Assembly: GCF_024223415.1 (NCBI RefSeq)
Contig: NZ_CP100510.1
Source: Escherichia coli
GTDB taxonomy: Bacteria > Pseudomonadota > Gammaproteobacteria > Enterobacterales > Enterobacteriaceae
Reading direction: 5' to 3' (one strand)
Length of the DNA: 1,565 nucleotides
In this document: positions 1 to 1,565 of the stretch, piece by piece
Layout: the number at the start of each line of letters is the position of its first letter
How positions within the stretch are numbered: position 1 is the stretch's first letter
Notes under the pieces: model-generated
What the model was told of the DNA's origin: nothing
What the model saw: the letters and a program-made list of their open reading frames with translations, nothing else
The model's database searches: none
Program-made: the position numbers and the translations under genes

Positions 1-49
1 ATGTGCAAATGTAATACCGTCACCCGCGACGATATTCCGTTTGCCATCT

Positions 50-74
50 GGTCAGGGCTTCGCCCCGACACCCC
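50..74. repeat. 25-bp perfect inverted copy of the oriT hairpin segment (exact reverse complement of 1386-1410)
   Basis: GGTCAGGGCTTCGCCCCGACACCCC at 50-74 is the exact reverse complement of GGGGTGTCGGGGCGAAGCCCTGACC at 1386-1410. The asymmetric flanks (1 nt one side, 5 nt the other) also match, so this is a true inverted duplication and not just the hairpin's own near-palindromy. Identity stops exactly at both ends. Confidence 0.9.
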
Positions 75-110
75 GCATCAGTGCGTACGTGCTCAATGTG
101 GTTTCCGGTT

Positions 111-171
111 CTCTTCCGCTTCCTCGCCCACTCGCTCACTAACGTTCGGTCGCTGGGGCTGCGGCGAGCGG
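111..171. other. Conserved ColE1/pMB1 origin-proximal block (candidate primosome-assembly / single-strand-initiation site)
   Basis: CTCTTCCGCTTCCTCGC (111-127) and GGCTGCGGCGAGCGG (157-171) are identical to the flanks of the block CTCTTCCGCTTCCTCGCTCACTGACTCGCTGCGCTCGGTCGTTCGGCTGCGGCGAGCGG that I recall lying about 45-125 bp downstream of the replication start in pBR322/pUC (similar in p15A); the middle is diverged. Same orientation as the oriT match. Function as a pas/ssi site is inferred. Confidence 0.55.
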
Positions 172-476
172 TGCCACCTCTCGCATGTTGTCGGTGATTC
201 CGCTGTTGTTCTTTCGGGGATAAGTCGTCAGATAGCCCTTCAAACGCGCTCAGAAGCTCTCAGACGCACGAAACGGGGTTTAAATGCCCGTCAGGGCATG
301 GAAGGCGCGAAAAACGCTTACAGAGCGTTTCAGGAGGTCAGGCGCGCCGATACCCCTAGCCAGGGGCTTTCAGGTCGCCAGGAACCGCGCCAGCCCCCTG
401 CAAAGCCCATTTGCACGGTACAGGCAGCCACTCGGTTGGTAGGTGGTCGTAGACCGTCGGTGTTACAGCGATGGGG

Positions 477-559
477 GTCTGGGGTTCTCCCCAGACGGTT
501 TCCGGTTGCGCTCAAGGCGCTGCCGGAACCGTGGCGGCTCGATCGTTCTGGAGATCGGG
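477..559. ncRNA. Cluster of three consecutive GC-rich stem-loops; candidate RNA I / RNA II-like antisense-control region (strand, ends and function undetermined)
   Basis: SL1 477-496: perfect 8-bp stem GTCTGGGG/CCCCAGAC, loop TTCT. SL2 497-530: GGTTTCCGG...CCGGAACC outer stem (one bulged T) plus inner GCGC/GCGC stem, loop TCAAG. SL3 538-559: CGATC/GATCG core stem, 8-nt loop GTTCTGGA. Three hairpins in about 85 nt is the RNA I architecture. Weak convergent promoter candidates flank it (see findings). No canonical terminator found. Confidence 0.3.
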
Positions 560-622
560 GAGCAAAAACACGCAAGGGATTTTGAGGCGGCAAAAGAGCA
601 ATGCAGGATAGACAACCCGATG

Positions 623-640
623 TCAAATGTTAACATTTGA
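623..640. repeat. 18-bp perfect palindrome TCAAATGTTAACATTTGA in the AT-rich spacer between the gene's 3' end and the stem-loop cluster
   Basis: Exact self-complementarity across 18 bp, seen directly. Lies in a locally AT-rich island at about 600-670; function unknown (protein-binding site, unwinding element or promoter element). Confidence 0.9.
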
Positions 641-686
641 ATCAGATTGTCCAAAAACGGGGTTTTTGCCTGTGCCTGCCGCTGGC

Positions 687-1166
687 TCAATTTGAAAACA
701 TGGCCATGATTCGGCGCTGAATATCACCGTCTTTGTTGACCAGTGTTTTAGTGACAAACGCCGCGTAGTTTTTAGATGTGTTGTATCCCTTCCAGACTTC
801 ATGTGGATCGAGTGCATACGCACAAACCTTACCAGCAACAGGAATTCTGACTAACGCGTTTTTTGATTCTAAGTAGTTGAGCCAGCGCTTAATTGTGCTT
901 CGGCTAACACCCAATTTATCTGCTAAAAACTGCTGATCGGCAACAACAGCACCGCATGAGGGATCTATGTGCTCAGCTAAAAACGAGTAAAGCGGTATTG
1001 CTACAACTCCCTGCTTGTCCTTCGACAGTTCTCGGATCCTTTCCCAGCCCTTCTGATAAACCTGGGTGAATGGGCCGTTATTTTTCGGATCTGATTCCGA
1101 TTCTTTGTTTAATTTTTCCAGTTCTTTTAGACGCTTTTTTCGCTGCTCTTCAGTCCCGATATACAT
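687..1166 (-). CDS. 159-aa winged-helix (HTH) DNA-binding protein; best guess a small-plasmid replication initiator or autoregulatory maintenance protein (RepA of tiny pKL1-type plasmids, or RepL-like). Family assignment is from memory and unverified; a cargo transcriptional regulator is the alternative.
   Basis: Only long ORF with coding-like composition. ATG is the reverse complement of 1164-1166, preceded by a GGAG Shine-Dalgarno (rc of 1174-1177) with a 7-nt spacer; stop TGA is rc of 687-689. Helix-turn-helix at about residues 77-98 (DQQFLADKLGVSRSTIKRWLNY, encoded about 873-938) followed by a wing-like segment (ALVRIPVAGKVCAYALDP). N-terminal 30 residues are K/E-rich. Upstream region is dense in operator-like repeats. 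Confidence 0.8.
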   Translation of the reverse strand: MYIGTEEQRKKRLKELEKLNKESESDPKNNGPFTQVYQKGWERIRELSKDKQGVVAIPLYSFLAEHIDPSCGAVVADQQFLADKLGVSRSTIKRWLNYLESKNALVRIPVAGKVCAYALDPHEVWKGYNTSKNYAAFVTKTLVNKDGDIQRRIMAMFSN

Positions 1167-1185: not shown

Positions 1186-1225
1186 ATGATGGCTCAAATA
1201 TAAGCCATCATAGCTCAAACGTAAA
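1186..1225 (-). promoter_or_regulatory. Candidate sigma70 promoter of the 159-aa gene overlapping a 9-bp perfect inverted repeat (candidate autoregulatory operator)
   Basis: On the minus strand: -35 TTTACG (rc of 1220-1225), 17-bp spacer, -10 TATATT (rc of 1197-1202), predicted start about 25-30 nt upstream of the ATG. Inverted repeat ATGATGGCT (1186-1194) / AGCCATCAT (1203-1211) has the -10 hexamer in its 8-nt spacer. GCTCAAA recurs at 1192-1198 and 1213-1219, 21 bp apart. Promoter assignment is by consensus match only. Confidence 0.5.
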
Positions 1226-1246
1226 CCATGATAGGTCGACCTAGCT

Positions 1247-1292
1247 CACACATGCGTGAGCTAACCTTAGACCACACATGCGTGAGCTAACC
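1247..1292. repeat. Two tandem 20-bp perfect direct repeats CACACATGCGTGAGCTAACC (1247-1266 and 1273-1292, period 26 bp); iteron- or operator-like
   Basis: Exact 20/20 identity seen directly. Each copy has internal dyad symmetry (CTCAC-ACATGC-GTGAG); the first copy extends to an 8-bp stem TAGCTCAC/GTGAGCTA. They lie 22-70 bp upstream of the predicted -35 of the gene. Related AGCTCA/TGAGCT half-sites recur at 1212-1217 and 1304-1309. Confidence 0.85.
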
Positions 1293-1355
1293 CATAATGC
1301 AAGTAGCTAAAAAATCAATAACTTACAAAATCGCCCTTAAATATCTTTTCTGCTG

Positions 1356-1385
1356 AAAGTGTTGCGCAAAGCGGAACACTTTTTT
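1356..1385 (+). terminator. Terminator-like hairpin followed by a T-run on the plus strand, directly abutting the oriT hairpin
   Basis: AAAGTGTT (1356-1363) pairs with AACACTTT (1375-1382), plus an inner CGC/GCG stem around an AAA triloop, followed by TTT (1383-1385) and then GGGG. The T-run follows the hairpin only on the plus strand. No convincing upstream plus-strand promoter was found, so the role is uncertain. Confidence 0.3.
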
Positions 1386-1446
1386 GGGGTGTCGGGGCGA
1401 AGCCCTGACCCAGTCACGTAGCGATAGCGGAGTGTATACTGGCTTA
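1386..1446 (+). other. ColE1/pMB1-type origin of transfer (bom/oriT): recognition hairpin plus conserved nic region; predicted nic CTGG|CTTA between 1442 and 1443
   Basis: GGGGTGTCGGGGCGAAGCCCTGACCCAGTCACGTAGCGATAGCGGAGTGTATACTGGCTTA matches my recollection of the pBR322 bom region (GGGTGTCGGGGCGCAGCCATGACCCAGTCACGTAGCGATAGCGGAGTGTATACTGGCTTA) with about 2 substitutions; the 36 bp ending at CTGGCTTA are identical. Imperfect hairpin GTCGGGGC-GAA-GCCCTGAC at 1391-1409. Which strand is nicked is assumed from the motif orientation. Confidence 0.8.
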
Positions 1447-1565
1447 CTCCTCTGCAAGCCTTACCAGCTGTGATTTTTGCCAGATTTCACGCTCTCAACG
1501 TTCAACAGCTCCATCATGGTTTTGCCGTCCGTTCACCGCTAAAACGCCTCAGAAATCGGGACAGG

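Follow-up and report, generated by a model that had tools for sequence, protein, structure and literature searches.

Known relatives of the plasmid

The closest described relative of the DNA analyzed here (the window, a stretch of 1,565 nucleotides from Escherichia coli) is pKL1 of E. coli KL4 (NC_002145, 1549 bp), a Col(MG828)-type plasmid with the same size and one-gene layout, to which the window is 75–91% identical. According to published descriptions, the oriV of pKL1 is located upstream of rep and comprises an IHF box and binding sites for Rep (PMC3832669); the plasmid is cited as a Rep-only replicon whose replication is under autoregulatory control by Rep (PMC12361487). Compared by description, pHW126, pIGRK and pIGMS31 share a layout of ssi, origin repeats and an autoregulated winged-helix rep gene with the window plasmid, and their Rep proteins possibly belong with the window RepA to a common RepL-like superfamily (PMC2831885); unlike it, they have larger Reps, their own relaxase and a sequence that is A+T-rich throughout. 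The oriT-only hitch-hikers pBuzz and pCERC7 are likewise tiny and relaxase-less, with acquired oriTs of other plasmids, and pBuzz is described with two inversely oriented oriTs (PMID 30468749; PMC11389934). The window plasmid has oriTs for two unrelated helpers, ColE1-type and IncX4-type, and a pKL1-type replicon in place of the rolling-circle type named for pBuzz. It shares with ColE1 and pMB1 a homologous oriT/nic block and a hairpin at the ssiA position, in the same relative order and orientation, but their RNA I, RNA II, origin, rop, cer and mob genes are missing from it.

Organization of the plasmid

The 1565-bp window is an entire circular plasmid. Many E. coli plasmids on deposit have the identical sequence, and it occurs at a coverage of at least 80% in 160 of 5426 complete E. 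coli genomes. The original prediction treated it as a fragment next to a Rep-like gene, but records of this length are circular, and the oriT, the origin-proximal block and the gene therefore adjoin across the coordinate origin. We consider it highly probable that the window represents a plasmid of the pKL1 family (Col(MG828) type) in its entirety, made up of a replicon unit and a cassette unit. The first unit (about 687–1355) would be the replicon, with repA, its promoter, the RepA repeats, an IHF site and an A+T-rich stretch; the second (about 1359–1565 plus 1–618, extended by 593–698) would be a non-coding cassette that contains no replicon. The cassette has a G+C content of 56–63% versus 30–46% in the rep module, and the hairpin at their junction is kept in pKL1 and in pMTY1886_NA7 with altered loop and stem bases. 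The cassette is also present in pKL1 (window 38–506 is 91% identical), as is the order oriT, A+T-rich/IHF region, paired repeats, repA, but the rep modules are only about 75% identical at the DNA level and the N-terminal 25 residues of RepA differ. Features are collected in Table 1.

Table 1. Features of the 1,565-bp window plasmid (strand "." where none is assigned)
Feature	Position	Strand	Basis and remarks
Inverted partial copy of the oriT hairpin, no adjoining nic region	48..74	-	inverted repeat and ColE1 alignment
Homologue of ColE1 ssiA / n'-pas, putative primosome-assembly-type single-strand initiation hairpin	114..171	-	alignment, covariation
Conserved non-coding segment	187..416	.	invariant across the family
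Cluster of three stable hairpins	468..560	.	folding versus shuffles
Predicted IncX4-type oriT	593..698	-	match to IncX4 pPF52; end overlaps the repA 3' end
repA, 159-aa initiator (N-terminal helix and single winged helix)	687..1166	-	homology, Pfam, structure model
RepA-specific repeats and repA promoter	1186..1292	-	repeat and promoter scans
70% A+T stretch, likely origin unwinding region	1293..1355	.	base composition and IHF consensus scan
Junction hairpin, 12-bp arms (AAAGTGTTGCGC / GCGGAACACTTT)	1356..1382	.	inverted repeat search; between rep module and cassette
ColE1-type oriT (bom/nic): hairpin GGTGTCGGGGCGAAGCCCTGACC, then ...GTGTATACTGGCTTA	1387..1446	+	ColE1 alignment

The rep module

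repA is the sole conserved open reading frame of the plasmid and its product is 81% identical to pKL1 RepA, which speaks against the earlier suggestion that this protein is a cargo regulator. Nearly all of its homologues (n = 697) are from contigs of 0.5–7 kb. RepA matches the Pfam family HTH_36 at 4e-6 and RepL (PF05732) at 0.011, the latter below significance; relatives at 51% identity match RepL at 2e-4 and are annotated as RepL. The structure model shows a winged-helix fold only (core pLDDT 72–91, overall a moderate 68), and a structure search with it gave only generic winged-helix regulators. Neither Pfam nor the fold of this model (pLDDT 68) revealed an HUH or catalytic tyrosine nuclease domain in RepA, and the same two approaches found no catalytic or helicase-loading domain. 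The two-domain Rep3 layout (Rep3_N plus Rep3_C) of pi, RepE and the RepA of pPS10 is likewise not seen, RepA having one winged helix; a true Rep3 protein of a relative (L004) scores 3.6e-33 with the same tool. As part of an explanation that we hold very probable as a whole, RepA would be a small winged-helix initiator of the RepL/phage-O-like kind. Because the RepL match is sub-significant and no catalytic or helicase-loading domain is evident, we infer how it starts synthesis: from the pKL1 literature and the anatomy of the region, RepA would bind its own repeats and autoregulate its own promoter, and would open or mark the adjacent A+T-rich DNA, where host enzymes would begin DNA synthesis.

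The iteron-like repeats that had been noticed earlier are indeed present upstream of the 159-aa gene and lie outside 73–600, the region first singled out. They consist of three ~21-bp tandem units at 1186–1248 and two 25-bp direct repeats at 1242–1292, each of the latter with the palindrome TAGCTCACACATGCGTGAGCTA; a promoter-like site for repA is found at 1225..1197 on the minus strand. The repeat sequence is specific to each RepA lineage and its position is the same, with TAGCTCAC..GTGAGCTA in the window plasmid versus TGTCGCATCC.GGATGCGACA in pKL1; judged from these sequences, the two probably represent separate specificity types and perhaps incompatibility types. The A+T-rich stretch, which goes with the rep module and not with the cassette, includes an exact match to the IHF consensus at 1313–1325. 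The IHF box, paired palindromic repeats (1242–1292) and A+T-rich stretch listed for pKL1-family origins upstream of repA (PMC3832669) are all present. The likely origin of the plasmid is on the rep side, outside 73–600. RepA, together with its own repeats and the IHF site and A+T-rich stretch at 1186–1355, almost certainly makes up the functional replicon.

Sequences related to ColE1

Three short blocks match ColE1. The oriT is 98.3% identical over 60 nt to ColE1 1521–1462 (blastn, E 5e-25), is presumably the nic region familiar from the bom of ColE1 and pBR322, and is kept in every cassette-bearing relative. A 24-bp copy of its hairpin (50–73) is 95.8% identical to ColE1 1498–1521 and is also present in pKL1 and other relatives; the inverted repeat that this creates has arms 50–83 and 1377–1410 that are 88% complementary. 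The origin-proximal block at 111–172 is 82.3% identical over 62 nt to ColE1 1367–1308 (E 2e-10), a segment at +110 to +170 from the ColE1 origin motif at 1186–1201; ColE1 1308–1367 is what we take to be ssiA, a PriA-dependent priming site. The original prediction was right that oriT and this block keep the ColE1/pBR322 order and orientation; it placed ColE1-type landmarks within 73–600, where the block lies but the oriT does not. The oriT and the pas-like hairpin are 229 bp apart, with the inverted hairpin copy in between, versus 95 bp in ColE1.

This order and orientation would put a ColE1 origin at about 283, and it is an argument for an alternative in which ~200–620 is a shortened ColE1-like, RNA-primed, Pol I-dependent origin, with a ~300-nt minus-strand transcript that starts near 598 and is processed near 300, and the 159-aa protein is a cargo regulator. 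A promoter-like site (633..605) and a hairpin followed by a T-run (331–305), both on the minus strand, fit such a transcript, and 284–317 is loosely, not significantly, similar to the ColE1 origin core. An Rfam scan of the whole window in permissive E-value mode, however, found no RNA I (RF00106), nor did Rfam find it in pKL1 and three other relatives, and the same tool detects ColE1 RNA I at 73.8 bits. By blastn there are no ColE1 matches beyond the three blocks, and Smith-Waterman alignment of window 173–640 with ColE1 630–1307 scored 20 and 21 on the two strands with a shuffle mean of 20 (158/300 and 121/300 shuffles did as well or better). The origin-like motif has the opposite orientation to oriT and pas, the "-10" TATCCT is more readily explained as the nick core of an IncX4-type oriT (92–96% identity with IncX4; see below), the 159-aa protein is a close homologue of pKL1 RepA, relatives replicate without the region, and no plasmid was seen that has the region but lacks an initiator-like gene. 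With no RNA I, RNA II or origin signal of any length, this reading is very improbable.

The same searches bear out the earlier statement that no confident ColE1 origin can be found, and a full-length alignment to a ColE1-type RNA II/ori was looked for and is absent. A minus-strand origin expected near 200–330 agrees with the geometry, but ColE1-origin homology is lacking there. Of two short ColE1 matches reported previously, GATAAGTCGT (given as 220–229) sits at 219–228 and does not occur in ColE1; ATGGAA..AAAAACGC, already regarded as a chance-level match of conflicting orientation, is inverted relative to the other blocks. The ColE1-like pieces were, as far as the alignments can tell, most likely borrowed as a transfer origin and a hairpin for DNA priming, and they include no ColE1 replication origin. 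Of the readings first offered, a Rep-dependent replicon retaining ColE1-derived modules is the one that is supported, the modules being a transfer origin and a single-strand priming hairpin on an exchangeable cassette, and "mosaic" amounts to the same answer. A mosaic, Rep-dependent, oriT-only hitch-hiker is in itself a largely ordinary finding.

The pas-like hairpin

In the origin-proximal block the invariant flanks TTCCGCTTCCTCG ... CTGCGGCGAGCGG enclose a variable hairpin (114–171), of which 35 distinct versions were collected from genome contigs and 31 sequences were used for structure analysis. Among the 31, 99.1% of cells are paired and 29 are double-change cells versus 7.6±2.2 in shuffles (0/500 had as many), and slid pairing partners score far lower. 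Sixteen G.T cells are allowed on the minus strand only, which makes this the folding strand. The thermodynamic z-score of the region by itself is unremarkable, so that the support comes from covariation only. The hairpin is predicted to be active on the minus strand, the repA sense strand, as a putative PriA site; it would start second-strand synthesis once exposed by a fork or displaced strand that moves in the repA direction, and would do the same in a recipient that receives the minus strand from the IncX4-type nick. Upstream of the pir iterons of IncX4 plasmids, pPF52 is 75% identical in the pas region (window 114–185) and pHNAH212872-3 matches window 114–331 at 80%. Since the pas-like element also occurs beside Rep-type origins, it cannot define the ColE1 family by itself.

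The predicted IncX4-type oriT

The mcr-1 IncX4 plasmid pPF52 has two inverted copies of positions 593–698, at 92–96% identity, of which one is situated 15 bp upstream from taxA/taxC and the other just after pir and the following ORF; IncX plasmids are described with two oriTs (PMC5955891, PMC3097218). An 18-bp palindrome, TCAAATGTTAACATTTGA (620–637), is followed on the minus strand by TTGTCTATCCTG|CATTG. The nick consensus for such MOBP-type oriTs is YATCCTG|Y, and TATCCTGC, 10 nt past the palindrome on the minus strand, fits this core; YATCCTGY has one occurrence versus 0.2 expected, and the predicted minus-strand nick falls between 604 and 603. Only cis-acting sites are shared with IncX4, the window plasmid having no pir, iterons, tax or type IV secretion genes. 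Because it encodes no relaxase, its oriTs would allow mobilization in trans, and the helpers would be the relaxases of co-resident ColE1-like or IncX4 plasmids, acting on the ColE1-type and IncX4-type oriT, respectively.

Other non-coding sequences

The invariant core (284–345) of the conserved segment 187–416 contains two hairpins, ATGCCCGTCAGGGCAT at 284–299 and AAACGCTTACAGAGCGTTT around 312–330, and 278–336 has folding z-scores of -3.7 and -4.3. This segment recurs close to the initiator genes of other plasmids, namely a Rep3 plasmid, IncX4, a RepA-family plasmid of 24 kb and one of Arsenophonus. The hairpin cluster reported earlier is confirmed, as 468–560 folds on either strand with z = -5.3, a value that none of 200 shuffles reached; it is seen only in small plasmids, and the relatives are too alike there for covariation to be read. 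The circular plasmid pBone2_3 (1393 bp), whose initiator is the pKL1 RepA, has no counterpart of 372–529, so the first two hairpins of the cluster are dispensable in a natural variant. A cer-like Xer site was considered as the function of 187–600 and rejected, the best score for an XerC-spacer-XerD core, 13/22, being below the typical shuffle best of 14–15 (ColE1 cer scores 22/22).

Some records annotate a 194-aa plus-strand ORF, 1..585, as "rep protein" or "hypothetical protein". It is uninterrupted from its ATG and overlapped by CDS annotations in several records, but close relatives have stops at codons 72–110 and net indels of lengths not divisible by three, the substitution counts for the codon positions (47/69/71) show no third-position excess, and the G+C-rich region favors long chance ORFs. 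We reject a coding role on account of the stops, indels and substitution pattern, and that 1–585 encodes a protein is extremely improbable.

Exchange of the cassette

The cassette, known from about 530 records, is 88–98% identical beside at least four different small winged-helix initiator modules and is conserved far better than the rep genes. All cassette-bearing plasmids examined encode an initiator-like protein. A carrier without a rep gene would have spoken for an autonomous origin; pAP17_1, rep-less according to its annotation, contains an unannotated wrap-around RepL-like ORF and was discarded as an exception. Conversely, RepA-family plasmids of 1240–1488 bp and 2953 bp (L008, L009, L010, L011, L013, L017) lack 73–600 entirely; linear, and hence incomplete, records of 1197, 1467 and 1603 bp were left out of this deletion evidence.

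It is conceivable, and we propose it tentatively as somewhat less than an even prospect, that the cassette (~825 bp) is a self-standing exchangeable "hitch-hiking and priming" backbone with oriTs for two unrelated helper systems (ColE1-type Mob and IncX4 Tax) and a PriA site, onto which at least four unrelated initiators have been swapped. As parts of that proposal, the oriTs and PriA site would all be on the strand that enters the recipient from the IncX4-type nick, and the hairpins at 468–560 and 284–331 would serve as additional signals for single-stranded DNA in this leading region, be it as priming sites, single-strand promoters or extra oriTs. If this is true, the "Col(MG828) replicon" of typing schemes would mark the backbone and not a replicon.

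We note that the cassette is very highly conserved across different rep modules and that its 82–416 part is regularly placed and oriented near unrelated rep genes, which suggests that it may contribute to replication in cis to a greater extent than an accessory element.

Start site and mode of replication

The position of 82–416 bears on where synthesis begins. It lies within 250–740 bp of unrelated initiator genes (Rep3, IncX4 Pir, RepA family, "initiator protein A" and several RepL-like), its strand agrees with the rep sense strand in 11/11 further contexts, and in IncX4 the pas is just outside the A+T-rich/DnaA-box/iteron block. Together with the high conservation of the cassette relative to the rep genes, this would fit a RepA-dependent plasmid in which synthesis starts inside the cassette: RepA would open 1293–1355, unwinding would spread ~400 bp across oriT, and the first primer would be laid at the pas and/or the 284–331 hairpins, making 73–416 a part of the working origin that is insufficient alone. 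The G-site downstream of oriR in R1 and the distant alpha and beta origins of R6K would be analogues. Many of these contexts share ancestry, however, so the matching orientations cannot be counted as independent of one another, and the closed circles without any part of 73–600 mean that the module is not required by the RepA initiator family. In the related pIGRK, moreover, ssi is dispensable, its loss leading to multimerization with replication kept (PMC6854812). A start within the cassette is unlikely.

The strand on which the pas folds is also the one that would be displaced if synthesis follows the rep direction, and a rolling-circle or strand-displacement mode like that reported for the pHW126/pIGRK group, with the minus strand displaced and the pas, perhaps with other hairpins, as single-strand origin, deserves consideration, doubtful as we judge it to be. 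Matches to RepL are weak to moderate for RepA and its relatives; for the pHW126-type Rep proteins a link to the pSN2-like (RepL) group was made by PSI-BLAST, and a two-origin assay showed rolling-circle behavior of pHW126 (PMC2831885). The pIGRK layout of ssi, conserved region, iterons and rep (PMC6854812) fits the minus-strand order here, which is pas, oriT, A+T-rich stretch, repeats and repA. On the other hand, RepA has no HUH or other nuclease motif or fold and the origin shows no recognizable nick site; the pIGRK authors call the mode of their own plasmid unsettled (PMC6854812), and reviews put pKL1 among Rep-autoregulated replicons, with no mention of a rolling-circle mode (PMC12361487).

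Implications

The window plasmid should not be handled as a ColE1 replicon, and the Col(MG828) typing label appears to follow the cassette shared by several initiators, which would conflate different replicons. The ssiA-type hairpin is a module reused widely beside many kinds of origin, and the strand-specific covariation that it shows illustrates cleanly how selection can act on the structure of single-stranded DNA. Positions 593–698 are a candidate IncX4 oriT that oriT-finding software currently misses. The plasmid, 1.5 kb long and without a relaxase, is found in about 3% of complete E. coli genomes and appears to carry both oriTs; access to ColE1-type as well as IncX4 helpers would be part of the reason why it has spread together with mcr-1-type IncX4 plasmids.

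A plasmid of the pKL1 kind

By megablast the window is a complete circular plasmid of 1565 bases, matched end to end (99.8-100%) by many 1565-bp E. coli records and one Klebsiella record, so the oriT block, the ColE1-like block and the gene adjoin across position 1. Of 5426 complete E. coli genomes, 160 have a copy with coverage of 80% or more. It is ~91% identical over shared parts to 1552-bp plasmids typed Col(MG828) and annotated "RepA plasmid replication protein"; relative to pKL1 (NC_002145, 1549 bp), 38-506 is 91% and 509-1565 75% identical, and the plasmid is a further member of this already known kind. We note that the E. coli L26 chromosome (NZ_CP146250.1, 1218136-1219708) contains a full-length, 100% identical copy in two pieces, either an integration or an assembly artefact.

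Features of the plasmid (window coordinates)
Feature	Position	Strand	Remarks
oriT block	1387-1446		ColE1 1521-1462, 98.3%, E 5e-25
ColE1-like block	111-172		ColE1 1367-1308, 82.3%, E 2e-10
Inverted copy, oriT hairpin only	50-73		ColE1 1498-1521, 95.8%
repA	687-1166	minus	sole conserved ORF
Promoter-like site	1225..1197		upstream of repA
Three ~21-bp tandem units	1186-1248		upstream of repA
Two 25-bp direct repeats	1242-1292		upstream of repA; palindrome TAGCTCACACATGCGTGAGCTA in each
70% A+T stretch	1293-1355		upstream of repA
IHF site	1313-1325		exact consensus match, within the A+T stretch
Hairpin	1356-1382		upstream of repA
Hairpin cluster	468-560		three hairpins; z = -5.3 on both strands
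Probable IncX4-type oriT	593-698	minus	nick predicted between 604 and 603

Resemblance to ColE1

The original prediction pointed to ColE1 landmarks beside a Rep-like gene; the landmarks are real, but do not signify a ColE1 replicon. The nucleotide search it proposed gave, besides the pKL1 match, exactly three ColE1 blocks (local blastn against NC_001371). Since ColE1 RNA I lies at 645-749 on the ColE1 minus strand (Rfam) and the origin motif CCTATGGAAAAACGCC at ColE1 1186-1201, the 62-nt block corresponds to ColE1 +110 to +170, which we take to be the location of the n'-pas/ssiA primosome assembly site in ColE1-type plasmids. Block order and orientation are those of ColE1 and place the expected origin near 283 on the minus strand, within the predicted ~200-330. 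As also anticipated, no RNA II or origin is recognisable: no RNA of the ColE1 kind turns up in a permissive Rfam scan of the window, relatives likewise have none by Rfam, and Smith-Waterman comparison of 173-640 in either orientation with ColE1 630-1307 scores 20 and 21, where shuffles average 20. The 10-nt sequence GATAAGTCGT noted earlier sits at 219-228 rather than 220-229, and is absent from ColE1. The sequence at 284-317, ATGCCCGTCAGGGCATGGAAGGCGCGAAAAACGC, is similar to the core of the ColE1 origin, ATGCTCGTCAGGGGGGCGGAGCCTATGGAAAAACGCC (12/13 + ATGGAA + AAAACGC), and lies at the ColE1 distance from pas (112 nt), yet its orientation is opposite to that of pas and oriT, and the likeness has no significance against shuffles. 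With no ColE1 RNA or origin found, an RNA-primed replicon of the ColE1 type is very unlikely despite the shared block order.

RepA and its probable origin region

The repA product is 81% identical to pKL1 RepA and matches Pfam HTH_36 (4e-6) and, weakly, RepL (0.011). Its 697 homologues come nearly all from contigs of 0.5-7 kb, and by tblastn 589 plasmid records contain relatives, some of which, at 51% identity, carry RepL annotation. The AlphaFold model (pLDDT 68 overall, core 72-91) combines an N-terminal helix with a single winged helix; the only Foldseek matches are generic winged helices (MarR/ArsR/CodY/TubR-type), and by model and search both a nuclease fold and a two-domain Rep3 fold are absent. 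The region upstream of repA has the anatomy reported for pKL1 oriV, where an IHF box, Rep-binding sites and a perfect inverted repeat all lie upstream of rep (PMC3832669); pKL1 is a cited example of an autoregulated, Rep-only replicon (PMC12361487). Aligned across RepA lineages, the repeats keep their position but have a lineage-specific sequence, as would be expected of an initiator with cognate sites.

Natural deletions and exchanged initiators

Natural deletions were mapped as a module matrix of closed-circle plasmids with RepA relatives. Entirely without 73-600 are a 1240-bp Klebsiella plasmid (oriT and repA), pSYM4 (1304 bp), which has oriT, repeats and repA, and two with no more than repA and a 24-bp match, pKPHS6 (1308 bp) and a 1306-bp plasmid of E. 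coli. A 1488-bp Citrobacter and a 2953-bp Pseudomonas plasmid also lack it. pBone2_3 (1393 bp), whose RepA is identical to that of pKL1, lacks 372-529, which contains hairpins 1 and 2 of the three. That synthesis in fact begins in the cassette (the GC-rich non-coding unit, ~1359-1565 + 1-618, extended by 593-698) after RepA-driven opening is a weaker rival, to be weighed beside these circles, and is unlikely.

Window 1383-1565 + 1-~555/635 is 88-98% identical even in plasmids with quite different initiators: a 177-aa RepL-like protein with 51% identity to RepA (in pSCU-175-7 and a plasmid of 1902 bp), a winged-helix protein of 143-146 aa whose DNA does not resemble repA (1506-, 1459- and 1433-bp circles) and, in Actinobacillus pAP17_1 (NZ_CP031857.1), a 165-aa RepL-like ORF (2082-2310 + 1-269, plus strand; Pfam RepL 2e-4) that spans the start of the circular record and is unannotated, mobA being the only gene listed. 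Among the plasmids examined, none has the region without an initiator-like gene. G+C is 56-63% in the cassette versus 30-46% in the rep module, a composition that agrees with a two-part mosaic.

The PLSDB "replicon" label Col(MG828) is found on cassette-sharing plasmids with differing initiators (L006, which is pAP17_1, L015 and L016) and is absent from RepA-family plasmids without the cassette (L008, L010, L013, L017); by this distribution the typing marker seems to lie in the cassette (~83-539) rather than in the rep gene.

In pKPHS6-type plasmids the 3' end of repA includes a 24-nt stretch (L011 819-842, L010 974-997) that matches 284-307 (hairpin ATGCCCGTCAGGGCAT + GGAAGGCG) at 100% and there encodes ...ARQGMEG.... 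Nothing else in these plasmids resembles the cassette, and the stretch may be a site in common or a junction left by recombination. Exact 11-nt direct repeats, GGTTTCCGGTT (100-110 / 497-507) and AAACGGGGTTT (271-281 / 655-665), connect far-apart parts of the cassette and could be chance or recombination footprints.

Hairpins of the cassette

The general role of the n'-pas/ssiA site has been described (PMC3167613, PMC2831885). The ColE1-like block has invariant flanks, TTCCGCTTCCTCG ... CTGCGGCGAGCGG, and scanning genome contigs with them gave 107 stretches in 35 distinct versions, some with a wholly different central hairpin whose pairing is retained. For 31 sequences in minus-strand orientation, the consensus structure shows pairing in 99.1% of cells (500 shuffles, 92.8+-0.6), 29 double-change cells (7.6+-2.2) and a covariation score of 0.249 (versus 0.123, and much lower with partners slid), each 0/500 in shuffles; the outer helix could not vary, since the search pattern fixed it, and it is the inner helices that give the signal. 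Sixteen G.T cells on the minus strand, C.A mismatches on the opposite one, indicate that the minus strand folds; in ColE1 it corresponds to the strand that leading-strand synthesis displaces, and here it is the repA sense strand. Judged by this covariation, the block is a single-strand hairpin element.

Extended to ~82-416, the element lies 250-740 bp from initiator genes in IncX4, in a Rep3 and an Arsenophonus plasmid and in a RepA-family plasmid of 24 kb, the rep sense strand being the same strand of the element in each. In the mcr-1 IncX4 plasmid pPF52, the ssiA-like hairpin (32497-32567) lies just outside a block, in the 700 bp that follow, made up of an A+T-rich region, a DnaA box (TTATCCACA) and six 22-bp iterons, all upstream of pir, whose sense strand is the hairpin's folding strand.

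The predicted hairpin cluster is borne out and, with an invariant core at 284-345, marks 187-592. This segment has no known RNA family in a permissive Rfam scan, and a cer search and coding analysis ruled out a cer site and a coding function. A 194-aa ATG ORF (1-585, plus strand) is called "rep protein" or "hypothetical protein" in some records; it is rejected as a gene, relatives carrying stops at codons 72-110 and substitutions showing no third-position excess.

A ColE1-type transfer origin and a probable second one

The ColE1-type oriT hairpin occurs twice, inverted (48-74 and 1386-1412, separated by 200 bp across position 1), an arrangement kept in pKL1 and most relatives; the nic region adjoins only the 1387-1446 copy and is absent beside the other.

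Window 593-698 matches mcr-1 IncX4 plasmids at 92-96%. pPF52 has this element twice, inverted, one copy 15 bp upstream of taxA/taxC and the second just beyond pir and its following ORF. All copies share a perfect 18-bp palindrome, TCAAATGTTAACATTTGA, then TTGTCTATCCTG|CATTG, and the two IncX4 copies diverge from 5 nt after the nick-like motif. Nick sites of the IncP/MOBP type follow the consensus YATCCTG|Y, so the "promoter -10" at 610-605 is better read as a nick core, with the predicted nick at TATCCTG|C. The element is probably an IncX4-type oriT, which would give the plasmid two different oriTs. The strand transferred from this nick would be the minus strand, on which pas folds, with the hairpin cluster and the 284-331 hairpins presumably entering first. 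IncX plasmids have been described with two oriTs (PMC5955891, PMC3097218), and the IncX4 oriT is missed by oriTfinder (PMC10604428).

Mode of replication

Most likely the replicon is RepA plus 1186-1355, and the cassette would supply mobilisation in trans through its two oriTs (the plasmid encodes no relaxase) and PriA-dependent priming of the second strand. Replication may be theta or rolling-circle/strand-displacement: the minus-strand order pas - oriT - A+T-rich - repeats - repA parallels the ssi - CR - iterons - rep layout of pIGRK/pHW126, a group in which ssi is dispensable and pHW126 shows rolling-circle behaviour (PMC6854812, PMC2831885); RepA is without nuclease features. The ColE1-replicon reading of this plasmid is wrong, and the mosaic, Rep-dependent reading, to which the relation to pKL1 RepA, the swapped initiators and the composition split all speak, is right.
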